IMG/VR virus record: IMGVR_UViG_2808606549_000001
Location: 1 to 64,000 of that record
Source: a virus
Taxonomy: Duplodnaviria; Caudoviricetes
Length of the DNA stretch: 64,000 nucleotides
Strand: one strand, 5' to 3'
Part shown: positions 43,114 through 64,000 of the stretch, piece by piece
Position numbering within the stretch: the stretch's first letter is position 1
Layout: every line of letters begins with the position of its first letter
Notes under the pieces: model-generated
The model's database searches: none
What the model was told of the DNA's origin: nothing
The model's input: only the letters and a program-made list of their open reading frames with translations
Program-made: the position numbers and the translations under genes

Positions 43114-43170
43114 TTAGTTGTTACACTCCTTTCAAAAATCAGATGAAACGGCAATTTTATTGGAATTTTG

Positions 43171-43217
43171 ACACAAAATATAGATATTTCATCAAGTCAT
43201 AACACTATATATAGTGT
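43171..43217. promoter_or_regulatory. Tandem NrdR boxes upstream of dnaE
   Basis: ACACTATATATAGTGT (43202-43217, perfect palindrome fitting the NrdR consensus) and ACACAAAATATAGATA (43171-43186), 31 bp apart. Confidence 0.7.
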
Positions 43218-43220
43218 CAT

Positions 43221-43586
43221 TCACTCAACGCCGCGAATAATTTCTCTCCAATATACCCTAGTGGGATCTGGCTTTAGGCAATCAATCAAGTGTTGTGCTG
43301 CAACTTGTGGCATTGCCGTATCTCCGCAAGTGTAGACGTCGAATGAAGCAAATCCTTGAGATGGATATGTATGGATGTCATAACTTGATTCCTGAAGCAA
43401 AAACATAATAGTCACACCGTTTGGAATGAAGTGTTTTTCGATGTGTCCGAGAATAGTTGCATTCGCTTTCTCTAAAGCTTCTCTTGATAAGTCTCTTAGC
43501 ATATCGATATTGTCTAATGTACCTGCATCAACTCCCCACATATCAACATGAATTGATAATCCACGAGTCCCGTACTCTTGTTCCAA
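43221..43586 (-). CDS. speD: S-adenosylmethionine decarboxylase proenzyme
   Basis: HF.PNGVT...LQES cleavage site; IHTYP; DVYTCG; RG. Confidence 0.85.
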   Translation of the reverse strand: MEQEYGTRGLSIHVDMWGVDAGTLDNIDMLRDLSREALEKANATILGHIEKHFIPNGVTIMFLLQESSYDIHTYPSQGFASFDVYTCGDTAMPQVAAQHLIDCLKPDPTRVYWREIIRGVE

Positions 43587-43597
43587 CTATCTTCCTC

Positions 43598-43972
43598 CTA
43601 TACACTCATCTTTTCGAATCTGCCATCCGGCAATGAATACACCACGGATTTTAAGTTAAACTTCTTCAAGTATTCTTGGCAGTGTCTGCAAGGCTTCGAT
43701 AAAATGGCCTTACCGCATTTCCAACCTGCCACATACAGGATTGCACCTTTTATCTCATCTGGGTCTAATTCACATAGAACCATCAATTCAGCATGTGATT
43801 GACGGTCTTTGTAAATTGGATCGATAAGTTCTCCAGCCTTTGTTTTATTCCCTTCTACTTTTAGCAGTTTCCCTCCGACCACTAAACATGCGATATGACG
43901 GTATGGATTGTTTACTTGGTGTCTCTCTGCTTTCTTCAGACAGTAAGTTATCCATCGTTTATCCCTACTCAT
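43598..43972 (-). CDS. Zn-dependent cytidine/nucleotide deaminase-like protein
   Basis: HAE...SKPCRHC motif. Confidence 0.8.
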   Translation of the reverse strand: MSRDKRWITYCLKKAERHQVNNPYRHIACLVVGGKLLKVEGNKTKAGELIDPIYKDRQSHAELMVLCELDPDEIKGAILYVAGWKCGKAILSKPCRHCQEYLKKFNLKSVVYSLPDGRFEKMSV

Positions 43973-44236
43973 ATCAATTCCTCACATATGTATTATTTAT
44001 TTTTAATTGTCGATGAATTATTCCTTTTATCATAATTTTTTTATTCTTTAAAAATCAACTTGTCATTTATCCAGTGTGTTATATATCCCCTATCGGACTC
44101 TATGCTATTTAAACTATTTTGCAACTCTTTTGCTTTGTCATATTTCATTGTAGCTAAAAATACAATTCCGCTTCTTCCCTGAACTACATATATGGTTTCT
44201 TGATTCATTTACTCCACTCCCCATCAAATTGTTCTT

Positions 44237-45511
44237 TTATGGCCCAAAAGGATCATTGTCACCTTCGTTATCTAGCAGAAATTTATAGTCCACATAAGGA
44301 ACTTCCCTTACCACCTGACAAGCCTTTAATGTAACTGTATCATCACTAACGTCAGCAAAGTCATCGACCTCAAAGCGAACCTCAAGTAGTGCTCGATTAT
44401 CTCTTGTGCTATACGGTGACTCATTAATATTTTTTAGTTCATTGAAATATAGAACCGGAGTTCCATAGCTATAACTACTGCCTTTCGGAACTGCCCTCTC
44501 GCCAATCTTATACTCAAAGGCACTATCGTAGAAACTGAAATATTGCTCTCCGCGTTTCTCAACAAACTTATAAAGTCGCTTATTGAATAGAACTTCTCGA
44601 TGATCTACTTTTATGCCATTGGAAGGTTCTTTACTAACCTTTTTCATTCCGCCATGACCAAACAGTCGATATGTATTATTGTTAAAGATAAAGTATTTAA
44701 CTGGCTGCTTTCGGATATTATCAATCAGTTCATCAACATTCTCAATTGTCTGAGGTTCTGGAGCTTTAAAATAATCTTCACTTGTCGAAAGTTTTGAAAT
44801 GTTTTTGATTGCTTGCGAGATCGAAAACTCATCTGTATCCTTAAACATCTTATCGTAATTTTCGCCATACATTCCGCCAATGTGTTCTTTAAGTTCTGCA
44901 TAGGAAGTGATGTTAAGTCCAATGCAAGAAAGCATAACCTTCACTAGTTCAGCCTTAGAAATGTAATAACCCTTATCTCTGTATTTTTGGACTCGCAACA
45001 TTGAAACTAATGGATAGGCCGTGTTCTCGTTGTAAATCAGAATCTTTTGCGAGTTATGCTTGAAGAATTCATTGTGAAAGTAGAACAGTTCATCCTTGAA
45101 ATCAAAAGCCCCCATGCAAACCGTATAATCAAAGGTCTCAAAGATTTCATCGGCGCTATTGAAATATTTAAAGTGGATGAGTTGTACGTCTTTAGAATTT
45201 TTCCATCGGATTAGTGTTGCTTTACTCGTAGAAGCCACAAACCAACCACTACTGCTACTATAGTTTTCCTCAATAAAATCGATCAAGTCTTCCTCTTTGC
45301 GGAAGTAAACATCAATATCATTGATTTCTCGATTACACATCAGACTTGTAATGGTGCCGCCAGCGATAAAGCAGTTGTATGACTTCAGTTCAGTTACCAA
45401 ACTTTTACCTAGATGATTATATAGTTTATTCTTTTCAAATTGATACAGTTCCCGTTTCCTGACTTCCTCTTGTTTCTTCAAAATTTCATCAAGTTGGATA
45501 CCAATGCTCAA
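44237..45511 (-). CDS. Nucleotidyltransferase (Pol-beta/CCA-like) with C-terminal extension
   Basis: IAGG.I.S.....INDIDVYF...VQLI...FDYTVC. Confidence 0.7.
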   Translation of the reverse strand: MSIGIQLDEILKKQEEVRKRELYQFEKNKLYNHLGKSLVTELKSYNCFIAGGTITSLMCNREINDIDVYFRKEEDLIDFIEENYSSSSGWFVASTSKATLIRWKNSKDVQLIHFKYFNSADEIFETFDYTVCMGAFDFKDELFYFHNEFFKHNSQKILIYNENTAYPLVSMLRVQKYRDKGYYISKAELVKVMLSCIGLNITSYAELKEHIGGMYGENYDKMFKDTDEFSISQAIKNISKLSTSEDYFKAPEPQTIENVDELIDNIRKQPVKYFIFNNNTYRLFGHGGMKKVSKEPSNGIKVDHREVLFNKRLYKFVEKRGEQYFSFYDSAFEYKIGERAVPKGSSYSYGTPVLYFNELKNINESPYSTRDNRALLEVRFEVDDFADVSDDTVTLKACQVVREVPYVDYKFLLDNEGDNDPFGP

Positions 45512-45576
45512 TGTTTTATTCTCCCTTTATCATTGTATATTTGAATTTGAATTGCCATGAAATGAGACATTTATTG

Positions 45577-46305
45577 TTAGTCTTTACTAAATTGATTAAT
45601 TGTCAAATATACCAGCATATCTTTTGAAAGACCTTCTTCTTTAAGTGCTCGAATAGTCTTTACTTTCTTTATGGCGATCTTGTAATTATCCATCATTGCA
45701 ATCGAAAACGCCTCACTGAATCCTAGTTCTTTCATTAACTCAAGAAATTTGTTTCTTGCGAATATCTCATAAGAAGTATTGATACAGATATCATAATCAT
45801 TTTGATTTTCTACAAAAGGATATTGATATGAAATTCGTTCTTTTAGATCGTCGTATGTAAGTTCCTCGATAATCTCAATTTGTTTGGAAGATAATTTAGA
45901 ATCATCGTTATTAAGCCTATAACCATATTTATGATATTTTTGTGCTGACGCCGCTTTATCTGCATCAGTCTTTTTAACTAACCCTCTTACCTTAAAGTAT
46001 CTGTTTTTAAAATCCAATCCATAATAATCAAATACATTATCTAGATTCAAGCAAAAATGAAAGCCAGAGTAGCATAATCGAACAGCCCCCTCATAGGTAT
46101 ACGTCTTGCCAATTTCAAATTGAAAATCCCTACATATCATATTTTCATCCATACCCTTGTAACCTTCCACCCAAATCCATTCATCATCAACATTTTTCGT
46201 TTCTAAAGACGCCTCGTTGGATACAGATAAATTCTCATCATTGTTGGTCTTTTTTTCCTCTACCTCAATCGATGATGTTTCCACTGTCCTTTTCTTCCAA
46301 AACAT
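45577..46305 (-). CDS. Conserved phage protein (GYKG...CRDFQFEIGKTY...C.SGFHFC family)
   Basis: Recognisable phage domain of unknown function. Confidence 0.65.
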   Translation of the reverse strand: MFWKKRTVETSSIEVEEKKTNNDENLSVSNEASLETKNVDDEWIWVEGYKGMDENMICRDFQFEIGKTYTYEGAVRLCYSGFHFCLNLDNVFDYYGLDFKNRYFKVRGLVKKTDADKAASAQKYHKYGYRLNNDDSKLSSKQIEIIEELTYDDLKERISYQYPFVENQNDYDICINTSYEIFARNKFLELMKELGFSEAFSIAMMDNYKIAIKKVKTIRALKEEGLSKDMLVYLTINQFSKD

Positions 46306-46355
46306 TTTATATCGCCTCTAATTATTATTTTTTATTTCCACATGAAATCTGGTTT

Positions 46356-46514
46356 TTATGGGTTCTCAATTGCTAATATAAATCCAAGGTCGAACATGAA
46401 TACTCCAAATAACAACGTATAGTATAATGACTTATCTTTTTTGGTAATCGTAAGAATCAAAGTCAAAATGACTAAAATCAGAAGCGTTAGAGAGATTATT
46501 TGAGAAGTATTCAA
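46356..46514 (-). CDS. Small two-TM membrane protein (below the ORF-track cutoff)
   Basis: MNTSQIISLTLLILVIL...LAIENP*; SD GGGGAG; its stop lies in repeat site 46342. Confidence 0.5.
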   Translation of the reverse strand: MNTSQIISLTLLILVILTLILTITKKDKSLYYTLLFGVFMFDLGFILAIENP

Positions 46515-46535
46515 TTAGGGCTCCCCTTTTTTAAA

Positions 46536-46763
46536 TTATTCATCAACAATCTCGAATTCCCAAAACCCACTTTCGCCTTCTAGATAGTTTTCTAATTTTA
46601 AAAGGTCTTCGTCCCAGGCTTTATAATCGGGGATTTCAACATAAAAACCACCTTCATTTTTCTTCACAATTGCCAGTCTGCCATACTCTCCATCATGGAA
46701 TGGTCTTAATTTATGTTCAGCACATATATCTCGACCGTATCTGTCCTTGTATGCCGATTTCAC
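46536..46763 (-). CDS. YopX-like small protein
   Basis: KDRYGRDI...FEIV pattern. Confidence 0.45.
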   Translation of the reverse strand: MKSAYKDRYGRDICAEHKLRPFHDGEYGRLAIVKKNEGGFYVEIPDYKAWDEDLLKLENYLEGESGFWEFEIVDE

Positions 46764-46803
46764 TGATTCACCTCACAATGTCCGATAATACATTCTCTGA
46801 TTT

Positions 46804-47118
46804 TTACTCTTCCCAACAAATTGTACAGGGGAAGTTTTCATTCTTATTGATCATTTCTTTTAGTGAATACAATACTGGCTCATCCTTGCCTTCACATTCA
46901 CTACATCCATCATTGCAACACATCACCATTTCGAAATCCATTTCTTTAAGGGTTAGACGCTTGATTCTGAGTTGACAACTATCCTCTTCACCTTCGTCCA
47001 TTTCACCGAAGAATAGATTTTCGGGGTAGCAGGTTTCTTCGATGTAATGTGAAAGGGCAATGTCTGCATTCTTCGCTGCTATATATCTTTCATTTATCTT
47101 GTAAACGTTCAAAACCAT
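46804..47118 (-). CDS. Hypothetical acidic protein
   Basis: ORF with SD; overlaps the upstream gene. Confidence 0.55.
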   Translation of the reverse strand: MVLNVYKINERYIAAKNADIALSHYIEETCYPENLFFGEMDEGEEDSCQLRIKRLTLKEMDFEMVMCCNDGCSECEGKDEPVLYSLKEMINKNENFPCTICWEE

Positions 47119-47545
47119 ATCCCTCCTTTAACACTTTATCTGGAGAGGTCATAGCAATGTTCTTCGCCATTTTAGTGGCGCACTTTAAACAAATTTTCGG
47201 AGTGGCTGTATTGCTCCACATCTCTTCTACTCCACAGAATGCACAAATATATTTAGTAATTGCTGCCCCACCAATCCCACTTCGTGAATGTTGAATGGCA
47301 TAAGCCATTTTTTTCACATCGATTGGAGATTGCTTCAGTTTTATCTTCTCTTCAAGTAGACACATTACTTCGATATGTTTATTGGATTCTTGTGCAGAAA
47401 GCTCTTCCCACGACATTTCAGATCCGAACACTTCTTTTAATGTTTCTATGTAGGCATCTTTATGTCCACGTTTCTTATGCTTAATAGAATCGAGAAACCA
47501 TGTATCTAATGACAATCCTTTCACCATCCTCATGAAATTTAACAT
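47090..47545 (-). CDS. Hypothetical protein with C-terminal Zn finger
   Basis: CAFCG...CLKC. Confidence 0.6.
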   Translation of the reverse strand: MLNFMRMVKGLSLDTWFLDSIKHKKRGHKDAYIETLKEVFGSEMSWEELSAQESNKHIEVMCLLEEKIKLKQSPIDVKKMAYAIQHSRSGIGGAAITKYICAFCGVEEMWSNTATPKICLKCATKMAKNIAMTSPDKVLKEGYGFERLQDK

Positions 47546-47746
47546 TCATCTACTTACGATAACAGAACAAGCCATAAATCCTCCGATAAATATCCATAGA
47601 GCGAAGAAGAATAACGCGATTACCTTTTCGAGTTTATTTGGTTCCGTAACAACTGATTTACCAAACATAAAAGAGAAAAGTAGAAATGCTAAAATTGCTA
47701 TAACTTCATTCAAAATACTAAATTTTATTCCTCCAATCAAATTCAC
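47546..47746 (-). CDS. Small membrane protein
   Basis: Two hydrophobic helices; bounded by repeat sites 47532 and 47736. Confidence 0.5.
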   Translation of the reverse strand: MNLIGGIKFSILNEVIAILAFLLFSFMFGKSVVTEPNKLEKVIALFFFALWIFIGGFMACSVIVSR

Positions 47747-48018
47747 TTTTCATTGTACTTGTCTAATTGCTTGAGTAGTTGATCTAACTTAGGATTATCT
47801 ATCATGCAGTCATTGCAATAACCTGCGTACATCAACAACTCTTTTTCTACTTCGGAGCGATTAATTTTACTGCGGTAATCTCGTATGGTCGTCATAAATG
47901 TTCTATTGAGGAATGTTTGCGTCTTTTGATACTCGCTAATAATTTCTTTTTGCAGATCAATTATGGCGTCTTTTTTTGAACTGTCCAAAGAATCACCCCA
48001 TTTCCCCATGAAAATCAC
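47743..48018 (-). CDS. Hypothetical protein
   Basis: Bounded by repeat sites 47736 and 48008. Confidence 0.5.
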   Translation of the reverse strand: MIFMGKWGDSLDSSKKDAIIDLQKEIISEYQKTQTFLNRTFMTTIRDYRSKINRSEVEKELLMYAGYCNDCMIDNPKLDQLLKQLDKYNEK

Positions 48019-48021
48019 ATT

Positions 48022-48369
48022 TCATTGGCACTTATTATGTATTTCATCTTGAATAGTCGGAGTAAAATTATTCGCCATCTGATGCTCATAAACTCCGAAC
48101 ATCATCCAATCAAGTGTATCTGCATAGCCGACAAATTCTAAGTCTTCTGCTTTTTCATAATACCCATTTACCATAATATCGTTTGAAACTATGTATTTTT
48201 TATTTTTCTTATTATAGACTGCCATCCATATTTCTTTTTGTAACTTTGACTCATTATTCTTCATACTTGAGAAAAAGAAAAATCCAGGAGTCGTTGATTC
48301 TTCTTTTTTAAATACTTTATAAACGCTCACGCCGCTAAGTTGCCTATAGATTTCCTCCGATTTCATCAT
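48022..48369 (-). CDS. Hypothetical protein
   Basis: SD GGAGG; stop lies in repeat site 48008. Confidence 0.6.
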   Translation of the reverse strand: MMKSEEIYRQLSGVSVYKVFKKEESTTPGFFFFSSMKNNESKLQKEIWMAVYNKKNKKYIVSNDIMVNGYYEKAEDLEFVGYADTLDWMMFGVYEHQMANNFTPTIQDEIHNKCQ

Positions 48370-48630
48370 CTTTTCTTTCCTCCTGTTGGAGTGTATTTTA
48401 TTATGTCACAATAAATCTTCCTGGTTATCTTCCATCTGATCTACTATTTGTCTAAGATCCTGCCTGTAGTCATTCACGTGTTTCACAATTCGATTGCGAA
48501 GTGTGCTGCTATTTAACTTTAGAGCCTTATTAATAATTTCAGAACAGAGTCCAATTTGGTTATAAACTTCATCAACGGTCAATTCGAATCACCTTCTATG
48601 ATATTAACTTGCTAATCATATCGATATGTA

Positions 48631-48924
48631 TTAAACGCATATTTCATTTACTTGATAATAATGCCTGAGTTTAAGTCGTTCACTTACCTTGTGCTCCGTT
48701 TTAACCTTTGCCATTCCGATAACTTCATTATTTTTAACAAATACAATGCGATTGTGATAATGGTAAAGCATTGTACCGTCCCGTTTAATTTTAATTCTTC
48801 GACCAAGATCAACACTTCGTTGAATTTTATAATCAAGCTCCTCGAAGGAATCACATTTAAGAGTGCTCAACGGACAATATTCTTTCCATAGTTCTCTTGC
48901 TCGTTCAGTGATATTAATTTTCAT
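48631..48924 (-). CDS. Hypothetical basic protein
   Basis: SD GAGGAG just downstream of repeat site 48945. Confidence 0.6.
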   Translation of the reverse strand: MKINITERARELWKEYCPLSTLKCDSFEELDYKIQRSVDLGRRIKIKRDGTMLYHYHNRIVFVKNNEVIGMAKVKTEHKVSERLKLRHYYQVNEICV

Positions 48925-48958
48925 GCTTCGTCTCCTCTTTTCTTATGAAATAGAAGTT

Positions 48959-49504
48959 TTATCGAAATAGTAAATTGTAAAGCACCTTTTCTCCATCAAT
49001 TATTTCAGCGTGTTCTTTGCTTATCTTTTCTTTCCAACTCTCAGCAAATTGCTTTGCCTCTGCTAAATCCTCAAAACCTCTGCCTAAAGCAGCACTATAC
49101 GAACCCTCATTCAACTTCTTTTGATAAAAGTTGTATTCAAATTCATCCTTATATTTTCTTCCGAAATAAAAAGGGTCTTTCCATGAAAAGCAAGGACTGT
49201 TCCCTTTCCAGGGGTCTGCCCACAATTCCACTGATAAGGGGATACCACAAGAAACACCTTTAATTATCACGCTATAGCGTCCCTGGTAAGTCTCACTTTT
49301 TTGTCTCGACGTACTTGCGTGTTCGCGAACTGTAACTCTAAAGAAATGCATTAAAGATTTAAATTGATGCGTCTCTCTCCAAACGAACGCTTTATAAATT
49401 GAGGGAGATTCAAATGCAGTATTCCAATAGTTATCGATTTCGTATATGTCATTTTCCTGAAACCAGTATGGTTTATTCTTAATTACCCATTCGTATTCGT
49501 TAAT
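48959..49504 (-). CDS. Hypothetical protein (frame open to an ATT at 49504)
   Basis: SD GAGGTG 6 nt before the ATT; 51 extra in-frame codons upstream of the ATG at 49351. Confidence 0.55.
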   Translation of the reverse strand: MNEYEWVIKNKPYWFQENDIYEIDNYWNTAFESPSIYKAFVWRETHQFKSLMHFFRVTVREHASTSRQKSETYQGRYSVIIKGVSCGIPLSVELWADPWKGNSPCFSWKDPFYFGRKYKDEFEYNFYQKKLNEGSYSAALGRGFEDLAEAKQFAESWKEKISKEHAEIIDGEKVLYNLLFR

Positions 49505-49515
49505 TTAAATCACCT

Positions 49516-49725
49516 CTAGACTTGATAATAGTTATCTAAGAGTTTTCCTGTGGCTGCTTCTTCAACATGTGATACCCAATCAAGAGTTCTGAGTAGGTGG
49601 TAATTTTTTTCGCCACATTTCAATCCAACAATGTCCGTATATTTCGATGTATACACGACTTCTCCGTACTTCTCTAATCGTTCTAAATTCTTGGCGTCTT
49701 TTAGCCTTAATAGAACACTTACCAT
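49516..49725 (-). CDS. Small protein, YlbG/DUF2129-like
   Basis: L...KYG.V.Y.SK...V.L...V..VE pattern. Confidence 0.45.
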   Translation of the reverse strand: MVSVLLRLKDAKNLERLEKYGEVVYTSKYTDIVGLKCGEKNYHLLRTLDWVSHVEEAATGKLLDNYYQV

Positions 49726-49950
49726 TATGTATCACCCCATGAAATCTGAGTTTCGTCTAATTATTGATATTTCTTTAGATAATAGTATTCATAAAGATCG
49801 ATTGCGTTAAAAACTGTTAACAGCCCTGCAAATGAAAACCAAAACCAAGGAGTAACCGTATTTTCAAAAATTAAACCAGAGATGGCGATTCCATATAAAA
49901 TGATATTGATGCCGATGGTGAAATAAATCTGGAACTTAACAGGTGGAACC

Positions 49951-50148: not shown

Positions 50149-50185
50149 TGTTTCTTTGCTCCCAACGAAAGATTTTCAACGGATT

Positions 50186-50607: not shown

Positions 50608-50617
50608 CTCATATGTA

Positions 50618-51270: not shown

Positions 51271-51299
51271 GAACTTTTTTACATTATTTATTTTAAAAT

Positions 51300-56903: not shown

Positions 56904-56952
56904 TTTCTTTTATGCGTCTCCTTGCATTTTTTATTTAAATGAAATGATTATT

Positions 56953-57159
56953 TTATTCGTTACGTGCAATGCCAGCATTTGCCCAAAAGACAGCAGTTTC
57001 AAGATTAGTTAGCGCCGTTGCCTTCTCTCGACTGTCAGGAACAAGCTCATCAATCGCCTTCGCAAATCCCTTTGCCAGGCTGCGTAGCGCTTCATACTTT
57101 TCTGGCTGCCCTTCCTTTGGTGAATGATAAATAAAATTGTTTTCAATAAATTGACTCAT
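56953..57159 (-). CDS. Acb2/Tad1-like helical-hairpin protein (candidate immune-signal sponge)
   Basis: F.YH.P...Q..KY..LR...SREKATALTNLETAVFWANAGIAR resembles the Tad1 C-terminal hairpin, recalled from memory. Confidence 0.65.
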   Translation of the reverse strand: MSQFIENNFIYHSPKEGQPEKYEALRSLAKGFAKAIDELVPDSREKATALTNLETAVFWANAGIARNE

Positions 57160-57230
57160 TCTTCTCTCCTCTCTTTCCCTACCGCCCACCCATAATAACT
57201 GCGATGAAATTATGTTTTTATCTGAATTAC

Positions 57231-57392
57231 TTAATTAAAGAAACCTGCCCAATATAGCAGACCCACTTCTACAGCAGCCGCGAAAAGCGTTGACCAGAAG
57301 TTATAATTCCCTTTTGGCTTACCGTGCAGATTCGCAGCCAACAACAATCCGATACCGATTAACACTATAATAATAATTTGTGGAATTCCCAA
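57231..57392 (-). CDS. Small membrane protein (below the ORF-track cutoff)
   Basis: MGIPQIIIIVLIGIGLLLAANLHGKPKG...WAGFFN*; SD AAGGAG; lies between repeat sites 57204 and 57418. Confidence 0.55.
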   Translation of the reverse strand: MGIPQIIIIVLIGIGLLLAANLHGKPKGNYNFWSTLFAAAVEVGLLYWAGFFN

Positions 57393-57431
57393 TAAAATAT
57401 CTCCTTTTTTAGTTTCTTCGAAAGAACTCTT

Positions 57432-57818
57432 TTATCGGTTTCTACTCGACAAATATTCCGTTTCTAATTCTTGCTTGTTGATGTCATATTTCTTAAGTAG
57501 ATAATTCAAAAGATCATCGTCACTCACTTCAATACCATTGCAAAATGGACAATACTTTGAAGCAATTCCAGTGTCGTCAATAATGTCTCCGATCTCGTAT
57601 CCATATTCGCTATCTTCCTTTGACTGAACACCAAACTCTTCTTTCTGCTCAGGAGTGCCGTCAAACACTACACCATAATGATATGCATACCTAGAATTAA
57701 TGTCGTCGTTTACTACGCAAGAAGCGCATAATCGATGACTACACTTACAACAAGATGCGACATACTCTTCATAGCGACTTTCACCACATGAATCGCATGA
57801 ATAAAAATCTACTCCCAA
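57432..57818 (-). CDS. Cys-rich Zn-binding hypothetical protein
   Basis: Several CxxC motifs; bounded by repeat sites 57418 and 57833. Confidence 0.6.
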   Translation of the reverse strand: MGVDFYSCDSCGESRYEEYVASCCKCSHRLCASCVVNDDINSRYAYHYGVVFDGTPEQKEEFGVQSKEDSEYGYEIGDIIDDTGIASKYCPFCNGIEVSDDDLLNYLLKKYDINKQELETEYLSSRNR

Positions 57819-57846
57819 ATCTCCATCTCCCCATGAAATCTCAAAT

Positions 57847-58356
57847 TCATTTCCAAAATTGATACCATCTCTGTTTAGACTTAGCTGGTTGCACGTCATT
57901 ATTATCCTTTTTTACTTCTTCAGCCGTCTTTGATTCATTTTCAATTCTTTTTCTTTCATCTAGAATTAGTCGTCTCTTTTCGTAATCATCTGACGCTTTC
58001 TTTTTGGATTCTTTATCTTCTACAAACCTTGCTTTGGCAATATAGTAGTTTACTGTTCCATCGCTTTCATGAGAAGATTTTAAAATTTCAAAATTCTCCT
58101 CATTTATTTTAATGTATTCACCTCGATTTAATTCTCTGATGAAGTTTTCTGTCTCATCAATAACTTCCCAATACTCATCAATAAATCTACTAACGATTTC
58201 TCCCCTGCTATTTGATAAATCAAGCAAATCTAATTCTGGAAGTTCAGAACTATACCAATGACCATAGGGCCGATATCCAAGGTAAAATTGTTCCGTTGCA
58301 ACTTTCTGATATATCTTGCTCCTCAAAATTCTATCCTCCCTAAGCAATTTGTTCAT
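57847..58356 (-). CDS. Hypothetical protein ending in RWYQFWK
   Basis: ORF whose stop lies in repeat site 57833. Confidence 0.6.
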   Translation of the reverse strand: MNKLLREDRILRSKIYQKVATEQFYLGYRPYGHWYSSELPELDLLDLSNSRGEIVSRFIDEYWEVIDETENFIRELNRGEYIKINEENFEILKSSHESDGTVNYYIAKARFVEDKESKKKASDDYEKRRLILDERKRIENESKTAEEVKKDNNDVQPAKSKQRWYQFWK

Positions 58357-58864
58357 CAACAATTCCCCACTTAATTGCTTCATCAATGTCCATATAATAA
58401 TCTTCATTACGTTTCGAATGGATAAACGCCACTGACAAGTTTGTTTTACTGCTGATGATGCTATTTCTCTTAGTCACTAATTTTTCAATCTTCTCAACTC
58501 GTTGTCTTAAATCGTGAAGTTGGAGAGATCCGCCAATATTCTCGGAGGGATCATGGAACATAAATTCAGCAAAGAGTCCAGCGTATCGCTTATGTCCGCA
58601 TGCAAAGATTAGGAATGCTGCTGAATATGCATATCCATAGCAATATGTATAAATCGGAGTCTTAGAGGTTTCCATGAGTGAAGCCATCGTGATAGCATCT
58701 AAGATATTTCCTCCACCTGAATTGATAATTAGATGGATAGGCTCTCTATCTTCAACTTGATTAAAATCATCTTCATTATTAATCCTGATGATTTCAGCCA
58801 TAACAGGAGCAACGGATTGATTATTAATCAAATCATATATGTATAGAACACGGTCTGGATTCAT
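58340..58864 (-). CDS. ClpP-like serine protease
   Basis: PI.L.INSGGG, YSAAFLI, FMFH, DYYM...EA..WG.VD. Confidence 0.85.
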   Translation of the reverse strand: MNPDRVLYIYDLINNQSVAPVMAEIIRINNEDDFNQVEDREPIHLIINSGGGNILDAITMASLMETSKTPIYTYCYGYAYSAAFLIFACGHKRYAGLFAEFMFHDPSENIGGSLQLHDLRQRVEKIEKLVTKRNSIISSKTNLSVAFIHSKRNEDYYMDIDEAIKWGIVDEQIA

Positions 58865-58881
58865 TATTTCTCTCCCACAAT

Positions 58882-59169
58882 TCAATTAACATATCTCACA
58901 ATGCCATTCGGATCTAAGTTGATTCCACAATTCTTAAGTTTATTTGTAATTACATCTTCAATCAGATATCCATCACCATGGGAGTCAAAAATGATTTGCT
59001 TCGGTTGATGCTGTGCTATGTATTGGACAATATCTTTAATTGCGTTGTCATAATATCCTTTTGCAACTTTAGGCAGATGATAAATACCTTGCTCGACATC
59101 TATACGCTGCACAACAATTTCTGACTGAGCAAGAAAGCCTGCTCGTTCTGCTCCAATGATGAATAACAT
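58882..59169 (-). CDS. Hypothetical protein
   Basis: SD AAGGAG. Confidence 0.55.
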   Translation of the reverse strand: MLFIIGAERAGFLAQSEIVVQRIDVEQGIYHLPKVAKGYYDNAIKDIVQYIAQHQPKQIIFDSHGDGYLIEDVITNKLKNCGINLDPNGIVRYVN

Positions 59170-59328
59170 TTTAGTCTCCTTTTAGTTTGATCCTACTGAA
59201 TATCCTACAAAGAAAACTACTGCTGTGTAGAAAAACAGCACCCAGAATAGCAATGACCTAGCAGGTTCAATAATCAAGTAATTAAGAATTTTCTTCAATG
59301 CGGTTTCCTTCCTCTTGAAAGCACAGTT

Positions 59329-59544
59329 TTATTGGACTACTAACTTATAACTGCCTGCATCAACTTCACTTGTTGGCACGTAATCCTTAAATCCATCTTC
59401 GTAAGTTACTTCAAAGCAAATTCGTTCCTTGAGTCCTCCATCAGGTTCAACATGAACAAGACCAGTAATAATAGGAATATCGCAGTTTGGTCTTCGATAT
59501 GAATTAGTGCTTACTGGCTCTAAAAACACATAGTTCACTTTCAT
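59329..59544 (-). CDS. Hypothetical protein
   Basis: SD AAGGAG; stop lies in repeat site 59315. Confidence 0.6.
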   Translation of the reverse strand: MKVNYVFLEPVSTNSYRRPNCDIPIITGLVHVEPDGGLKERICFEVTYEDGFKDYVPTSEVDAGSYKLVVQ

Positions 59545-59760
59545 CTAATTCTCCTTATTCCGTTAAAATTCAAACTTCATTGGAATATACTTTATCAATA
59601 AACACTGTCTACATCAGTCCAAAATTCTTCTCCATTGTCGATTACAATTACTCTTAGTGCGTCACCATGAACATTTGTCACTTTGGCATTTTTTCCGACA
59701 TTGTGTGCATAATCACTACGATGGATTTCTACTATCTCTCCAAGTAGAAAAGAATAGTCA

Positions 59761-60330
59761 TTAGACATGTACCAATTCTCCTTTTTTATACTTATTATAA
59801 GCCGAACGTACAGCCTTCAGTTTGTCATTTTCCTCAAGAGGTTCAGAAATAAATCTTCTTCCTGTGTACTTCATATTAACTCCGCAACACTCATATTTTT
59901 TAAATGCCCTTCCTACCTTACCCTCTTGCTTTTCTTCTAAGTAGTCTCTGGTCTGATAATTTTTCTCGCAGAGAGTGCATTTGTAGCAGCCATATGGATA
60001 AAGATATAGGAATGCACCATTCTTAAAGATTGTCGTCTCCGTAGATGAAGCGCCAATCCGCTCTAATTCATCCTCAAAGAATGTAGTGTGATCATCATAT
60101 TCTTGCCCCACTTTGCGACAATACCAATGGCACAACTCATGAAGCAATGTATCGTCAGTCATTAACTCATCGTGAAGAATTCTAGGAGAAAGTTCAATGT
60201 AGGTTTCAGCACACCATCCATATGTACGTTTGAGTCTATTATTGACCCTAACTGGAATGTCTAACTCCATATTCCACAAATGCTTTACAAAGAATTTTGC
60301 TTTCTCTTGTAGACTCTGGCTAGTCTCCAT
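59761..60330 (-). CDS. SprT-like zinc metalloprotease
   Basis: NNRLKRTYG...IELS...TLLHELCH...DH...F; C-terminal Zn ribbon. Confidence 0.8.
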   Translation of the reverse strand: METSQSLQEKAKFFVKHLWNMELDIPVRVNNRLKRTYGWCAETYIELSPRILHDELMTDDTLLHELCHWYCRKVGQEYDDHTTFFEDELERIGASSTETTIFKNGAFLYLYPYGCYKCTLCEKNYQTRDYLEEKQEGKVGRAFKKYECCGVNMKYTGRRFISEPLEENDKLKAVRSAYNKYKKGELVHV

Positions 60331-60356
60331 TTCATCTCTCCCAATGAAATATAGAT

Positions 60357-60560
60357 TTAATAACCTCTGAGTTTAACTAACTCGTTGAATGCTCTACAAA
60401 TTAGCATATCTGGATCGTCTGGACGCGCAGGAACACTTAGCGAAAATGTTCTATCGATGAATTTCTGTAAAGCCTTGTGACACTCATTAATATCAACTGG
60501 TTCCTTACACTGCCTTTCAAACTCTTCTTGGTTCATTTTAAAGTGCTCCATAGTATTCAT
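60357..60560 (-). CDS. Hypothetical protein
   Basis: Stop lies in repeat site 60344. Confidence 0.5.
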   Translation of the reverse strand: MNTMEHFKMNQEEFERQCKEPVDINECHKALQKFIDRTFSLSVPARPDDPDMLICRAFNELVKLRGY

Positions 60561-60786
60561 GTGGCATATCGTTGTTGTTGCGCTTCCTGCGCTGATTGAA
60601 TTTGGTGTTTGTAGATCCGCCCTTTTTCGTTCCTTGCATCAGATGAACTACAACATCCGTGAACCCTTTGATCTTGGCGATATGTTCGGATTCAACTCGT
60701 GCAGTGATTCTGTCTGTAAATGTTTCGTGAGTGATAATTTCTGCTTTACCATTTTCATTTTTTGCGATTGCATAGTATTGAGCCAT
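60538..60786 (-). CDS. Hypothetical protein
   Basis: SD GGGAG. Confidence 0.55.
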   Translation of the reverse strand: MAQYYAIAKNENGKAEIITHETFTDRITARVESEHIAKIKGFTDVVVHLMQGTKKGGSTNTKFNQRRKRNNNDMPHEYYGAL

Positions 60787-60821
60787 TATTATTATTTCTC
60801 CCTTTATTTATGTTTTGTTTA

Positions 60822-61652
60822 TTATTTAAATGGGTGATAATCAATTGCTTCGCCAAACGGATCGTTTTCCTTGATCCAATTTCTAAACTCACATGATTCT
60901 CGATGATTGCAGAGGTTGCAAGCAAAAAAGTCTTTTTGGCCATCTACCGCTTTACATCTTGGATTCCAAACTACATTCGACTCAATCTTCTTAGTTGTAT
61001 CGACTACCCATCGTTTTGTCTGCTCTAATTTATTATGATCGAATTTATAGGCAAACTCTTTCTGTCCTGATTCCCTGGGAAAGATGTAGATGAGATGGTC
61101 TGGGTATCTACCATACTTTTCGAAAATAGGTATGGAGTACATATACAACTGCATAATGTTGTGTTCAAGTTTATCTCCTGTGTACCTAGCAGCCGTCTTA
61201 TAGTCACCAATAACTAAATCGTATTTCTTGTGTTCGGCCACTAGATCAGGGAATCCCTTAACCTTAACACCATCAACATCAAACAATTTTTCTTCTTCTG
61301 CTTCTAACACTTTATAGTTGTCGAAGATTTCATTATAACTACCATCATCAAAAAATCTATGTATGGCCGTTTCATAAGACTTACCCATCTTATAAAACGG
61401 AGGCTTAAAGTTAAAACTCCTCAGTCTACGGTTGATCTCGTCTTTTATATCCCACTCATACAAATTACCTTTTAACAGATCCTCGATGATTTCATGGAAC
61501 ATTGTTCCGTACTCACCGAAATAATTATTAATGCCTCTGTCACCTTCCAAGTATGTCTTGTAAAAGTTCCAAAAGCATCCCTCTCCTTTCTCTGCTAAGT
61601 GGTATGAATTCAATCGACTAAAACTGTAAATTGTTTCACTTATCATAATCAC
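60822..61652 (-). CDS. PD-(D/E)XK exonuclease (Cas4/AddB-like)
   Basis: YSFSRL...C...GT.FH..IE...GFPDL...DYKT...QL..Y...C..C.....C. Confidence 0.85.
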   Translation of the reverse strand: MIMISETIYSFSRLNSYHLAEKGEGCFWNFYKTYLEGDRGINNYFGEYGTMFHEIIEDLLKGNLYEWDIKDEINRRLRSFNFKPPFYKMGKSYETAIHRFFDDGSYNEIFDNYKVLEAEEEKLFDVDGVKVKGFPDLVAEHKKYDLVIGDYKTAARYTGDKLEHNIMQLYMYSIPIFEKYGRYPDHLIYIFPRESGQKEFAYKFDHNKLEQTKRWVVDTTKKIESNVVWNPRCKAVDGQKDFFACNLCNHRESCEFRNWIKENDPFGEAIDYHPFK

Positions 61653-61669
61653 TTCCGCATCTTTTATTT

Positions 61670-61906
61670 CTATGTATTTTTATTGATTCCTTCTGCACAA
61701 TTCAGTAGTGATTGGAGGATCGCCTGTTCATCTGGCTTCAATTCAAGTGCTTCTGTATTTCCATAAGCTTGAGCAAAGACTTTGTACAGAACACTTGTTA
61801 ATGCAGAAACCTCCTTATTGTTTATTTCCCATTCAATCTTGTGAATTGTTTCGGCTACAGATATTTTGCTCAAGCCTGTCACTCTCCCCCTTGGCGATAC
61901 ATGCAT
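61670..61906 (-). CDS. Hypothetical protein
   Basis: ORF in the minus-strand arm. Confidence 0.5.
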   Translation of the reverse strand: MHVSPRGRVTGLSKISVAETIHKIEWEINNKEVSALTSVLYKVFAQAYGNTEALELKPDEQAILQSLLNCAEGINKNT

Positions 61907-61961
61907 ATTAGCAAATTGCTTATCCCAAAGTCAATATATCTCAGACTATAATTTATCTTTT

Positions 61962-62174
61962 TTACATTTTATTTTTTAGCCGTCCATATTTAACCTTAGC
62001 GAGTCGGATCAACTCTGGTTCAGTTAGGCTCCCCTTGGGCATGTACTTGCTCCAGAGGGCTTCTACGGCCTCGGGACGGTAATCATCTACAGCAGCCTTG
62101 ATGTTGTGTCCTCGCTCTTTAAGCAGCAAACTAGCTAATCCTAAGAGCATCAAATCGGTTTGAATCTGTTTCAT
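61962..62174 (-). CDS. Hypothetical protein
   Basis: SD GGGGG directly after repeat site 62184. Confidence 0.55.
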   Translation of the reverse strand: MKQIQTDLMLLGLASLLLKERGHNIKAAVDDYRPEAVEALWSKYMPKGSLTEPELIRLAKVKYGRLKNKM

Positions 62175-62197
62175 ATTACCCCCATGAAACTAATGTT

Positions 62198-62602
62198 TTA
62201 TTGGAATTTACTTTTGAGCCATTCTTTAAATGAAACTGTAACAGTCTCCTCATAATTGACGCAGCCAATGTTTTGATCTGGTCGATATTTTTTAATACAA
62301 CCAAACACGCTATCGTAATTCGAGCACTTTTTGCATTTGCTTTCATTAAGAATATTATATTCTTCAGTTGTCATGAAATAAAACCGACGCTCTGCCAAAT
62401 TGAGATAGTTATTTAAGTATATTAGATTTAGCTCAATATCTTCCTTTATTACAATTGTGGATTTGTGGCGATAGTCAATCTTAAATCCCATAACAGGCAT
62501 GTGATTCTGAAGATATTCTTGAAGTTCTTCAATAGATTGAACATTTTCAATCCAGTAAAAATCTCCCCAACCACTTCCTGCCTTCTCACATCGAATAAAC
62601 AT
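62198..62602 (-). CDS. Hypothetical protein with Cys cluster
   Basis: Bounded by repeat sites 62184 and 62619. Confidence 0.6.
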   Translation of the reverse strand: MFIRCEKAGSGWGDFYWIENVQSIEELQEYLQNHMPVMGFKIDYRHKSTIVIKEDIELNLIYLNNYLNLAERRFYFMTTEEYNILNESKCKKCSNYDSVFGCIKKYRPDQNIGCVNYEETVTVSFKEWLKSKFQ

Positions 62603-62682
62603 ATTGTTATCCTTTCCTATGAAACGTGTGTTTTATCGGAATTTCCGGCTTAAAAAGTCCTTATAAATCAAGGCTTTTTGAT

Positions 62683-63432
62683 TCAGCTAAAAGTTGCCTC
62701 TGGTTCCTTTTCTGGAGTTACTTCGTCATTTGAATATTCTTCATCAATAATAACCCTCGTCCCATTTTGATCAAGCTTCATCAGGAATAATTCAAAACTA
62801 TTTAGATGCTTGATTGAATGCAGATCGTGCCTCGTGTCATACTTAATTTCAAATCCTTCTTTTCGATCATCTTTCCATCGGGACAGTCTTACTGCAAAAT
62901 TCATATCCTCATCCTTTTCACATTCAAGGATCAGATTGGCATATTTAAACGATTCCCAAGAGTAGGTGTTTTCTGCGTAAACAACCTCAAAACGAACATC
63001 AACCATTTCATAAGAAACGCCATCATCATACACTACTTCTAAATTATCTGTGTTGACATTCTTCTCTACATACTTCATCCATTTTTCGTAAATCTCAGAT
63101 ACATTAATGGAATCCCTTTTATCTTCGGCAGACATAATCTCTTTGAAGTTTTCAAGAAGAAGGCGATTTGCAGTCGTAGACTCTTTAAGGATTTCCGCTA
63201 GAACATGATCAAGTTTTACAACATATTTTGAATAATCATATCCGTCTAGATAGGGGATCATAACTGATTCAATCTTCTTTTTAATTGCCTTCGTGCCATC
63301 GCCCCAAGAGCCGAAGATATCCTCGATAGCTTTCTTAACTCCTTTTTCTAGATTATCCGCAATAATCTTTTCAACAATGCCTTCATCAAGTTTCTGAGCA
63401 ACAATATCCTTAATTGATTGTTCTACTGTCAT
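62683..63432 (-). CDS. Conserved hypothetical phage protein
   Basis: 249 aa; SD AAGGAG. Confidence 0.7.
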   Translation of the reverse strand: MTVEQSIKDIVAQKLDEGIVEKIIADNLEKGVKKAIEDIFGSWGDGTKAIKKKIESVMIPYLDGYDYSKYVVKLDHVLAEILKESTTANRLLLENFKEIMSAEDKRDSINVSEIYEKWMKYVEKNVNTDNLEVVYDDGVSYEMVDVRFEVVYAENTYSWESFKYANLILECEKDEDMNFAVRLSRWKDDRKEGFEIKYDTRHDLHSIKHLNSFELFLMKLDQNGTRVIIDEEYSNDEVTPEKEPEATFS

Positions 63433-63440
63433 ATTTTATT

Positions 63441-63776
63441 TTATTCTCCTTTTAGTTTTTCAATTAGTTTTTCAAGAACTTCAATAGCGTATTGATTAAT
63501 AGTTCTTTCTTCTTTGAACCACTCTGGATCATCCTTTAGTGAGGCATGAAGAATGAAACTGCCTCCACAATATTGAGCCGTCTCTTGGCAATTTCCTTTA
63601 TCAGTCCAAGCCAATTTAAGACATCCAGCAGCTAGGCTACCAACAATATCATCCTCAGTGTCATGAACAAAAACTGTTCCCTTTTTGCAACCAGGCATAT
63701 CTTTTTGAAGAATGTATTTCTTCATCTTTTGTTGACGATTGCGATCCAATATATATGGATAATTTCTTTTGTGCAT
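63441..63776 (-). CDS. Hypothetical protein
   Basis: SD GGAG directly after repeat site 63789. Confidence 0.6.
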   Translation of the reverse strand: MHKRNYPYILDRNRQQKMKKYILQKDMPGCKKGTVFVHDTEDDIVGSLAAGCLKLAWTDKGNCQETAQYCGGSFILHASLKDDPEWFKEERTINQYAIEVLEKLIEKLKGE

Positions 63777-64000
63777 CTCGTACTCTCCATGAAATTTGCT
63801 TTTTATCGTATATTAACTTACTGGATTGTTGCTAAACCTGAAGGTTAGTGTGCTGCAAAACTTTCGATTTACCGCAATGTTTCCTTCAAGCCAACAATTC
63901 TCAATCTTTTTTCGCGTCGCATTTTCTAGAAAAAACAAGTCAAATCGAAAATCTCTACCTGAATAAATCATCATCTCGTACTTTCTTTCTATATCATGAT

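Follow-up and report, generated by a model that had tools for sequence, protein, structure and literature searches.

Tyrosine recombinases require identical overlap regions, Xer-type sites have a central region of 6 bp, and the attC sites of integrons are roughly 57-141 bp long. PeSLs are described as junction repeats found at module boundaries in variable regions (PMC2839356), and stoperators as elements of short intergenic spaces with a bias to the direction of transcription (PMC9283540). In the SPbeta group, the recombinase-fold protein MrpR acts as a repressor (PMC10516654), and the late operon of SPbeta is transcribed by YonO from one start site (PMC5467207).

The phage analyzed here is, judging by its YonO, MrpR, YopP, YopQ-like and YomM-like homologues, a member of the SPbeta supergroup. 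Its whole record comprises 127,534 bp; the window is the 64-kb stretch of it in whose coordinates positions are given unless they are marked as genome positions. Junction sites of the form ATRAAA-N6-TTTYAT and the features associated with them in the window are as follows.

125..142, minus strand: copy near the start of the record, 1 mismatch
15208..16227, plus strand: Xer-like tyrosine recombinase of 339 aa, candidate enzyme, in the structural operon at the position of SPbeta yomM
16232..16249, minus strand: exact site, opposite in direction to the rightward genes, 5 nt past the stop codon of the tyrosine recombinase gene
33387..33404, plus strand: exact site in the rightward (late) arm, in the same direction as the rightward genes
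43143..43160, minus strand: junction site ATAAAA-TTGCCG-TTTCAT, exact, dnaE start 29 nt downstream
43221..49725, minus strand: array of small, mostly unnamed genes, from dnaE to the thyA-nrd block
44013..44030, minus strand: junction site ATAAAA-GGAATA-ATTCAT, 1 arm mismatch
44223..44240, minus strand: junction site, 1 mismatch (TTTGAT), TAA of the upstream gene within the left arm
45557..45574, minus strand: junction site, 1 mismatch (ATAAAT)
46342..46359, minus strand: junction site, exact, stop codon at offset +1
47532..47549, minus strand: weak copy ATGAAT-GTTAAA-TTTCAT, 2 mismatches, TGA stop within
47736..47753, plus strand: copy ATCAAA-TTCACT-TTTCAT, 1 mismatch, stop in the spacer; read on the plus strand and therefore inverted relative to the leftward genes
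48008..48025, no strand: symmetric copy ATGAAA-N6-TTTCAT, stop codon at offset +1
48945..48962, minus strand: junction site, exact, stop at offset +1, next start 20 nt downstream
49739..49756, minus strand: weak copy ACGAAA...TTTCAT, 2 mismatches, followed by GGGG and ATG
56939..56956, minus strand: junction site upstream of nrdB, exact, stop at offset +1
56953..64000, minus strand: second small-gene array with sites at many junctions, running past the window end
57204..57221, minus strand: junction site, exact
57418..57435, minus strand: weak copy ATAAAA...TTTCGA, 2 mismatches, TAA stop within
57833..57850, minus strand: weak copy ATGAAT...TTTCAT, 2 mismatches, TGA stop within
59315..59332, minus strand: junction site, 1 mismatch (TTTCAA), stop at offset +1
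60344..60361, minus strand: junction site, 1 mismatch (ATTAAA), stop at offset +2
62184..62201, minus strand: junction site, exact, stop at offset +1, next start 9 nt downstream
62619..62636, minus strand: junction site, exact
63789..63806, minus strand: junction site, exact

All 22 copies listed in the preliminary description, 19 of them in 43143-63806 and three at 125, 16232 and 33387, were found at their positions. The enrichment that it reported also holds, with 11 exact ATRAAA-N6-TTTYAT matches in the window where 100 dinucleotide shuffles gave 0.27 on average and 2 at most, but its count of ten exact copies was off by one: nine lie in 43143-63806 and two outside, and the remaining ten of the 19 copies have one or two arm mismatches. 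The whole record contains 33 such matches (0.31 in shuffles), and about 55 sites are found genome-wide when one mismatch is allowed. The arms are nearly invariant across sites (position table) and asymmetric, since ATAAAA..TTTCAT occurs 29 times in the genome, ATGAAA..TTTCAT four times and ATAAAA..TTTTAT not once. ATGAAA-N6-TTTTAT was counted 23 times forward and 6 times in reverse in the whole record, the backwards control giving 1 and 0. Its 29 copies are tied to the N6 spacing, and spacings of N2-N5 and N7-N11 give 0-1 copies in the whole genome; in the three genomes compared, 29, 20 and 30 copies were found at N6 vs 0-1 at the remaining spacings. Around the site there is a weaker outer palindrome (TTCCG-ATAAAA-N6-TTTCAT-GGGAA), to which the common flank AAATTCCA-ATAAAA, correctly noticed earlier for the sites at 43143 and 62184, belongs.

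The sites avoid coding sequences: of the 55 sites found when one mismatch is allowed, 50 are centred outside the predicted CDS, which make up 88.4% of the genome (binomial p = 3e-41; genes were called with our own codon-usage and RBS script, not with a standard gene finder). A site is located just 5' of the Shine-Dalgarno sequence, overlapping part of it, at 9-45 nt from the next start codon. The upstream stop codon falls within the site in 12 of the 19 copies, as had been stated; eight of these cases were computed at offset +1 or +2, and those at 47532, 47736, 57418 and 57833 were read from ORF ends. The nearest gene has the same direction for 35 of the 51 asymmetric sites and the opposite one for 16, so that about a third are inverted (23 vs 6 for the exact sites). 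The sites border the variable arrays of small genes, and the core blocks lack them, with no copy at up to one mismatch in dnaE (39925-43113) or in 49739-56939 (thyA-nrdA-nrdB). The initial view of the sites as real, oriented and junction-specific is supported.

The motif is a feature of phage DNA: a Paenibacillus genome of 5.2 Mb contains 24 exact copies, and 20 of them fall within a prophage of ~170 kb. The phage and its Paenibacillus relative have a collinear core and unrelated small-gene arrays, with sites throughout both arrays, and the genes of the 43221..49725 array are all without a homologue in the matching region of the closest relative found. SPbeta carries its own version, ATAAAA-N6-TTTTAW, in 30 copies at N6 only. 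A search for a close relative of this phage found none, and the evidence on breakpoints was drawn from other phages, which carry this motif or a sister of it.

It had been proposed to test whether gains and losses of genes in relatives break at the sites, and this was found in two related groups, the SPbeta clade and the TTTCAT-type phages G008-G010. In eight SPbeta-like genomes, the starts of homology blocks cluster at site offsets -5 to +1 and the ends at +16 to +18. A breakpoint was present in 43 of 45 junctions with a site vs 76 of 200 without one, these junctions not being independent since the eight genomes are related to one another; restricted to gaps of 25-90 nt, the counts become 33/35 for site junctions and 22/62 for site-free ones. 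Internal block ends coincide with sites in 87 of 332 cases in these genomes, and the sites are therefore not the sole boundaries. Among the spacer groups of the SPbeta clade found at junctions in at least two genomes, the flanks were swapped in 15 of 15, that is, a slot retains its own spacer while the flanking DNA is exchanged. Two sites bound a stretch of 3213 bp with 99.97% identity between SPbeta and phi3T, and some indels run from site to site (~800 bp with yoqH-yoqI; ~1.8 kb with Gad1). In G008-G010, homology breaks at 5 of 9 shared-spacer sites. Contigs of two runs containing the phage, which are blind to rare forms, held no site-to-site joints. The same kind of site marks where related phages swapped, gained or lost gene blocks, and this behaviour may extend to the phage studied here.

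We tentatively favour the explanation that these are core sites for Xer-like phage tyrosine recombinases. The sites would be read by protein as double-stranded DNA, with two inverted 6-bp arms 6 bp apart, each between the stop of one gene and the ribosome-binding site of the next, and would serve as joints for exchanging, gaining and losing gene modules among related SPbeta-type phages. The enzyme, which may be the YomM-like (15208-16227) or the YopP-like candidate (genome 119585-120634), would bind the arms and use the 6-bp spacer as the overlap region, so that the crossover would be located within the spacer. As the spacers within one genome all differ, its sites would normally not recombine together; the recombination partner would be the same-spacer site of a co-resident relative, and the DNA of one side could be swapped without flanking homology, with the gene order preserved. 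Rarer joins of unlike sites at an arm may add or remove the genes lying between. It should be mentioned that exchange through an identity of 18 bp, or of 6-8 bp at the arms, would give the same pattern without a dedicated enzyme.

The product of 15208..16227 has the sole PF00589 match in the genome (Pfam Phage_integrase, 3.3e-22), its best NCBIfam matches are XerA, XerC and XerD, all well under their cut-offs, and R, HxxR, W and Y are all present in the alignment. The alignment shows R, HxxR, H/W and Y retained in both candidates, which are Xer-like; for SPbeta YomM and YopP, our alignment places K at the expected second catalytic Arg. As to the suggestion that the phage uses its own tyrosine recombinase, the genome does encode Xer-like enzymes with catalytic residues, and these are candidates for a role at the sites. 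Of the compared genomes G001-G010, all but the fragment G007 gave PF00589 matches, the motif-poor G002 and G005 among them, and thus the presence of a tyrosine recombinase does not follow the motif. YomM-like and YopP-like proteins are each absent from some motif-carrying genomes, and no YopP-like protein was found in the motif-carrying G008-G010. Arms of six bases are short for a recombinase, which counts against the recombinase reading.

The main rival explanation, somewhat less probable than the recombinase reading, is that a dimeric DNA-binding protein at many junctions blocks or tunes the read-through of the early region by the host polymerase, with exchange via microhomology as a by-product, because the sites would be the sole short identical stretches left between unrelated genes. 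One candidate regulator is the recombinase-fold YopP homologue; yopP is described as a core gene of SPbeta-like phages whose expression in lysogeny is most likely. MrpR provides a precedent in the same phage group, and the sites, likewise in short intergenic spaces and biased to the transcription direction, are dense in the early, host-transcribed region (40/124 junctions) and rare in the late operon (3/34). Helix-turn-helix dimers like the 434 repressor are also compatible with the strict N6 spacing. Spacer identity follows flank identity (93%, 85% and 71% across falling flank-identity classes), and this comparison revealed no constraint on the spacer beyond that of its flanks. However, a regulator alone explains neither the breakpoint excess nor the site-to-site indels, 16 of the 51 asymmetric sites are opposed to the gene direction, the YopP-like protein of this phage keeps in the alignment all catalytic residues, needless for a pure repressor, and G008-G010 carry the motif without a YopP-like match.

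PeSL-like cassettes, in which the repeat supplies a promoter and/or terminator for the next gene and its recombination shuffles modules as in T4-type phages, share with our sites the repeated junction motifs in variable small-gene regions that coincide with module boundaries, but appear improbable here. No conserved -35 or -10 surrounds the sites (position table), sigma-70-like matches number 57 vs 70.2 expected in 43-63 kb, and the next start is so close that a promoter and leader cannot fit; there is no stable stem-loop, and terminator-like matches are not enriched (10 vs 9.1 expected). An mRNA element, that is, a hairpin or protein-binding element acting as a translational operator or processing site, would agree with the position of the site on the 5' side of the Shine-Dalgarno sequence and with the orientation biased to the mRNA sense. 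We consider it equally improbable, because 5 of 9 sites fold at a minimum free energy of 0, an arm hairpin (-4 to -5 kcal/mol) forms in just 2 of 9, the A-C opposition conserved in the arms weakens pairing in the mRNA strand, and about a third of the asymmetric sites are inverted. The near invariance of the arms leaves no compensatory variation, and no Rfam match was found in the 64-kb window.

A genome-wide operator of an MrpR-like master repressor, the alternative named in the preliminary description, is very unlikely. MrpR binds a repeated element in SPbeta, and a homologue is encoded at genome 84418-85389 (MrpR_N_CB 2.4e-23; MrpR_C_cat 9.8e-18), but that element, SPBRE, which we recovered at ten reported promoters as approximately ACAAATACAAAAAATATGTATAT, overlaps promoter hexamers and differs in sequence from the junction motif. 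ChAP-seq gave ten peaks in SPbeta, every one at an SPBRE promoter, vs at least 30 junction sites, and at three early promoters the present genome carries an SPBRE-like element of its own together with an extended -10.

A true integron, with attC-type cassettes captured or excised by an IntI integrase, was rejected as extremely unlikely: a one-directional gene array split by imperfect palindromes and an encoded tyrosine recombinase speak for it, but the integron-integrase model TIGR02249 scores 18.8 bits vs a cut-off of 265, neither attI nor Pc was found beside the recombinase gene, which is 27 kb away within the structural operon, and the sites do not fold. The integron-like character first suggested was thus not upheld in the strict sense, and that interpretation is, overall, partly supported. 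Compared with known systems, the sites are 18-28 bp long and non-folding, attC being far longer; in the SPbeta clade, unlike integron cassettes, they are tied to a slot and not to one gene; and, if bound by a regulator, they would resemble the stoperators of Cluster A mycobacteriophages.

The junction element of this phage, ATRAAA-N6-TTTYAT, reads ATAAAA-N6-TTTCAT on the coding strand and consists of two 6-bp arms separated by a 6-bp spacer. All 22 site strings listed in the preliminary description were found at their positions, and the excess that it had roughly estimated was confirmed: the window contains 11 exact copies, with 0.27 expected. Across the entire 127,534-bp record (G000), whose first half is the window, we counted 33 exact copies, with 0.31 in shuffled sequences, and a de novo search for spaced word pairs ranked this motif first in the genome. 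The string ATGAAA-N6-TTTTAT occurs 29 times in G000 and its backwards control once. The spacing of this arm pair is strict: all 29 copies have N6, and other spacings from N2 to N11 gave zero or one. By kind, the exact sites comprise 29 mixed copies (ATAAAA..TTTCAT), four of ATGAAA..TTTCAT and none of ATAAAA..TTTTAT; thus, the asymmetry is part of the site. Outer, weaker positions widen it to approximately TTCCG-ATAAAA-N6-TTTCAT-GGGAA, with pseudo-palindromic arms.

The observation that all spacers differ also held for the whole record (55 of 55 sites with at most one arm mismatch), yet this carries no weight because only 0.82 repeated pairs are expected by chance; the corresponding test for avoidance of repeated spacers (0 pairs versus 0.82 expected in this genome and 0.48 in SPbeta) had no power. 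It should be mentioned that the spacer ends with A in 30 of 55 sites of this phage and in 16 of 30 SPbeta sites, and seldom with T, and that it never begins with C in SPbeta; both versions of the motif thus share a weak preference within the spacer.

The positions of the sites relative to genes were determined with gene calls from our own script, based on codon usage and ribosome-binding sites, which limits the accuracy of the CDS and junction counts. Equal frequency inside coding sequences, which would have spoken against a junction element, was not observed: 50 of the 55 sites (at most one arm mismatch) are centred outside CDS in a genome that is 88.4% coding (p = 3e-41). The preceding gene usually stops inside the first arm, with a TAA or TGA at its offset +1, or at most 13 nt ahead of the site, in agreement with the earlier reading, and the next start codon follows 9–45 nt after the site. 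Asymmetric sites are oriented with the nearest gene in 35 cases and against it in 16 (23 versus 6 for exact sites). Sites are carried by 40 of 124 junctions in the leftward block (36–98 kb), by 6 of 39 junctions at 103–121 kb and by just 3 of 34 in the rightward structural block. The core blocks are indeed free of them, with none in dnaE and none in the thyA-nrdA-nrdB block. The array genes are mostly unnamed, and five of ten tested had no PHROG match. The following individual features were recorded in and next to the window:

window 16232-16249, exact site, inverted relative to the neighbouring genes, 5 nt past the stop codon of the tyrosine recombinase gene; the following ORF might start at the ATGAAA of this site
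window 52943-55612, ribonucleotide reductase large subunit with an intein carrying a LAGLIDADG domain; the SPbeta counterpart is likewise annotated with an intein
window 55638-56903, N-terminal ATP-cone domain fused to the ribonucleotide reductase small subunit
G000:C1 64484-64578, immediately past the window end, two exact sites in opposite orientations around a 59-bp segment that holds a terminator-like palindrome, AAAACCCTTG...CAACGGTTTT

Several encoded proteins connect the phage with SPbeta. Its YonO-type RNA polymerase has 52% identity to SPbeta YonO, its YopP homologue is 34% identical, and its MrpR homologue is encoded beside a DndB-like protein in the yopQ-yopR arrangement. A large serine recombinase is also present, the Xer-like tyrosine recombinase gene lies in the structural operon at the position of SPbeta yomM, and the DnaE protein has 45% identity to that of Geobacillus virus E3. 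By these matches, this phage is a distant member of the SPbeta supergroup. Three further genes are located in L050 and L051, two loci taken from G000:

L050:3399-4742, DndB-like protein, gene directly upstream of the MrpR homologue, like yopQ in SPbeta
L050:16020-17117 (G000 98020-99117), tubulin/FtsZ-family GTPase, within a short rightward block
L051:7908-9008, protein with a GmrSD N-terminal domain

The closest relative found was a Paenibacillus prophage that carries the TTTCAT form of the motif. In the 5.2-Mb Paenibacillus genome, 20 of 24 exact copies lie inside this prophage of ~170 kb and none in the adjoining 50 kb of host DNA. The best DnaE identities were 67% among viral contigs, 69% (this prophage) among genome contigs and 57% among metagenome contigs, and megablast of the 43–50 kb region against the phage collection gave no match; relatives at 69% or below are too distant for nucleotide-level mapping of breakpoints in this phage itself. 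The first 160 kb of the prophage hold homologues of 32 of 227 genes and the extension those of about 20 more; the common genes, chiefly for replication, lysogeny and structure, keep the same order. For the small genes upstream of dnaE the prophage offers no counterparts, and sites punctuate both arrays. Indirectly, this is the picture that a conserved core with exchangeable slots would be expected to give. The 18-mer with spacer TACTAG at G000:C1 92394 recurs identically in the Paenibacillus prophage (G011:C1:1429292), against a chance expectation of about 0.2 such matches; as its flanks are unrelated, it may be a chance match. Contigs of two sequencing runs containing this phage showed no site-to-site joints, although such contigs are blind to rare circles or deletions; the contigs of a third run gave no coverage.

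Unexpectedly, the same word-pair search in SPbeta ranked a related motif first, ATAAA-N7-TTTTA, with 52 copies versus 4.7 expected. The SPbeta version of the site, ATAAAA-N6-TTTTA[AT], is found 30 times at N6 and at most once at other spacings. These sites lie directly past stop codons and a short distance ahead of ribosome-binding sites. Its commonest form, T[GA]A-ATAAAA-N6-TTTTAA, by our reading of the consensus (SPbeta loci L053-L055), has stops in all three frames, which would terminate an incoming gene in any frame. Among other IMG/VR virus records, exact motif copies number 14 in G008, 10 in G009, 8 in G010 and 6 in G006 (backwards control 0–1). In other relatives, G001-G005, copies are few or absent. 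The motif was also present in one metagenome contig. Viral contigs scanned for the motif together with its CG/GG flanks yielded 28 stretches with a single match each, some of which led to G006-G010; a dyad search of the partial relative loci L009-L017 revealed no convincing element.

The preliminary description had proposed a check on whether gene gains and losses in relatives break at the sites. We examined this in other phages, namely the SPbeta clade and G008-G010, with a positive outcome. For the SPbeta clade, the 81.3–101 kb region of SPbeta was compared with the matching regions of Goe13, phi3T, SPbetaL4, SPbetaL8, SPbetaL2, SPR and BUCT083. Among 640 internal ends from all ordered pairs, starts of homology blocks cluster at site offsets -5 to +1 and their ends at +16 to +18. 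At 245 co-directional junctions, a breakpoint was present at 43 of 45 with a site and at 76 of 200 without (Fisher p = 1.7e-13), the counts being non-independent because the genomes are related; with the same reservation, junctions with gaps of 25–90 nt had a breakpoint in 33 of 35 cases with a site versus 22 of 62 without. The sites account for just 87 of 332 internal block ends.

Within a slot, that is, a junction with its own spacer across relatives, the same spacer recurs in as many as eight of the eight genomes, with flanks on either side that vary in many combinations. Swapped flanks were observed in all 15 junction spacer groups that occur in at least two genomes; the two spacer groups without swaps are chance matches within genes. 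Arm variants in the SPbeta clade go with their own flank and the spacer is common to them. No extra conservation of the spacers beyond that of the flanks was seen. SPbeta and phi3T share a 3213-bp segment with 99.97% identity and site-to-site ends. Anchoring on the flanks revealed one site inverted as a whole and also site-to-site gains or losses between unlike sites, of ~800 bp with yoqH-yoqI and of ~1.8 kb with Gad1. The latter module is found in two loci:

L058:13580-15402, SPbetaL4, module with a Gad1-annotated gene between two junction sites, insertion relative to SPbeta
L060, SPbetaL2, module with a Gad1-annotated gene between two junction sites, insertion relative to SPbeta

In G008-G010, which carry the TTTCAT form, shared-spacer sites coincide exactly with homology breaks in five of nine cases, one case is ambiguous, and in three both flanks are kept. 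The consulted part of a study of phi3Ts-SPbeta hybrids reports one non-homologous laboratory crossover after yosA; in the hybrids, the region after yosA is one parent's version throughout.

Because the sites are strictly spaced, lack folding and are confined to phage DNA, they would seem to be read by a protein on double-stranded DNA. Inverted arms around a 6-bp spacer are the geometry of tyrosine-recombinase core sites of the Xer type, and by alignment both candidate Xer-like recombinases, the YomM-like (window 15208-16227) and YopP-like (genome 119585-120634) proteins, carry the catalytic residues R, HxxR, W/H and Y. Together with the same-spacer sites with swapped flanks, which a recombinase needing identical overlap regions would yield, the geometry and the two Xer-like proteins lead us tentatively to favour site-specific recombination as the mechanism. 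It is possible, if doubtful, that SPbeta-type phages run a natural cassette-exchange system with core sites at gene junctions, the 6-bp spacer serving as an address and Xer-like recombinases swapping the modules. Swaps would then take place between co-resident relatives at matching addresses, without flanking homology and with gene order intact, and anti-defence and other accessory genes would travel in the slots. If this were true, a large double-stranded DNA genome would reassort in effect like a segmented one.

The main rival, which we regard as somewhat less likely than site-specific recombination, is that the sites bind a regulator, perhaps as a stoperator-like roadblock, with exchange proceeding via the short shared sequence. 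Microhomology exchange would give the same picture as crossover at a core site, with block ends at the site edges and a shared spacer, and the sites have the properties expected of stoperators, being oriented (35 versus 16), numerous and located in short intergenic spaces (50 of 55 outside CDS). Comparing the occurrence of YomM-like, YopP-like and PF00589 proteins across genomes with that of the motif was of no help in separating recombinase from regulator.

Neither of the two comparisons offered by the preliminary description, an integron-like array and an operator of the SPbeta repressor MrpR, agrees with the data. As to the integron, the 15208-16227 protein scores 18.8 bits with the integron integrase model TIGR02249 (cut-off 265) and its top matches are Xer models. 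The sites measure 18–28 bp and, when nine were folded with RNA parameters, five had a minimum free energy of 0, so that attC-type folding is not apparent. There is no array head with integrase, attI and promoter, the sole PF00589 gene being part of the structural operon, at a distance of 27 kb from the first array. Finally, the site does not move with a cassette: in the SPbeta clade the same-spacer site stays in its slot with either flank changing.

As to the MrpR operator, we derived its sequence from the ten promoters that the ChAP-seq paper lists (PMC10516654). This SPbeta operator (SPBRE), approximately ACAAATACAAAAAATATGTATAT, is unlike the junction motif and sits in promoters, and in the consulted part of that paper the ChAP-seq peaks fall on SPBRE promoters only (PMC10516654). 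This genome has a separate SPBRE-like element, a second repeat TATAAAAAATACAAAA-N3-TATTG located in three large intergenic regions:

G000:C1 97274 (L050:15274), minus strand
G000:C1 112078 (L051:11078), minus strand
G000:C1 116223 (L051:15223), minus strand

It is followed ~25 nt on by TGCTATAAT, or by TGGTAATAT in the 97274 copy. The two parts together are likely an early promoter and operator for the MrpR homologue, and judged by sequence this would be a better operator candidate than the junction motif.

The sites are unlikely to be an RNA element, a hairpin, a promoter or an MrpR operator. Among the nine folded sites an arm hairpin (-4 to -5 kcal/mol) formed in two, and no Rfam family matched in the window. 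No conserved -35/-10-like hexamers surround the sites, promoter-like matches in a sigma-70 scan are not enriched (57 versus 70.2 expected), and neither are terminator-like matches. The SPbeta late operon has a single start site used by YonO (PMC5467207). Type I restriction targets, ComK boxes, CodY boxes, IHF sites and primase sites were weighed for their resemblance and dropped; none accounts for the junction position.

The consulted parts of the literature searched, including an SPbeta review, preprints on SPbeta relatives and on hybrid phages and the MrpR paper, do not describe the motif; the 1999 SPbeta genome paper and supplementary files were outside this search and may bear on priority. 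It is an old question why phage mosaic boundaries coincide so cleanly with gene edges. Here such boundaries carry a defined 18-bp element, both in SPbeta and phi3T, which form a Bacillus subtilis model system, and in no fewer than two further groups of large phages of Firmicutes, and the question becomes directly testable by ordinary genetics. Since the slots hold accessory genes, such as the Gad1-annotated gene in SPbetaL4 and SPbetaL2, the sites may organise the spread of such genes.

Core sites of the Xer/Cre type (dif, loxP and heterospecific lox) have inverted arms and an asymmetric spacer of 6–8 bp, and productive exchange requires the same spacer. The junction sites resemble them in their inverted arms and spacer, in the Xer-like recombinases encoded by the phage and in the same-spacer sites with swapped flanks in relatives. 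However, the conserved arms here are 6 bp long, or up to ~11 counting the weak outer bases. To our knowledge, natural systems of this type work with no more than two sites on a replicon, where they resolve dimers or mediate integration, whereas here there are ~55 differently addressed sites at gene junctions, and the pairing of enzyme and site is putative. If a dedicated recombinase is involved, Xer-type enzymes would be seen in a new role, and engineered cassette exchange would have a parallel in nature.

With integron attC arrays the junction sites share one-directional genes, imperfect palindromes between them, and gains and losses ending at the sites. But attC sites are far longer, fold as single strands and move with the cassette, and an IntI gene, attI and Pc head the array; none of this applies here. 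Stoperators, bound by the L5 repressor in Cluster A mycobacteriophages, are similar in having more than 20 genome-wide sites in short intergenic spaces with an orientation that tracks transcription, according to the consulted part of PMC9283540, yet they are an asymmetric 13-mer with a single sequence, to which the repressor binds as a monomer, whereas the junction site is dyad-like with a variable spacer and a third of its copies are inverted. SPBRE is likewise a repeated intergenic element of the same phage group read by a protein with a recombinase fold (PMC10516654, consulted in part), but it has another sequence and ~10 copies within promoters, and SPbeta contains both SPBRE and the junction motif.

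The closest described thing, as far as the consulted parts of the source papers go, is the PeSL of T4-type phages. In both cases short repeated motifs separate the small non-essential genes of variable regions (PMC2839356, PMC4122927), and differences between close relatives, here seen in the SPbeta clade and G008-G010, end at the motifs, with recombination shuffling modules (PMC2839356). A PeSL, however, combines a sigma-70 promoter with a terminator stem-loop and its copies are alike, whereas the junction site has no promoter, stable hairpin or terminator. It is a pseudo-palindrome of 18 bp whose spacer, strictly 6 bp long, has a different sequence at each genome position and is kept per slot among relatives. 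If no dedicated recombinase is involved, the junction sites would join the PeSLs of T4-type phages as a clear second case of recombination being channelled by motifs at gene junctions.
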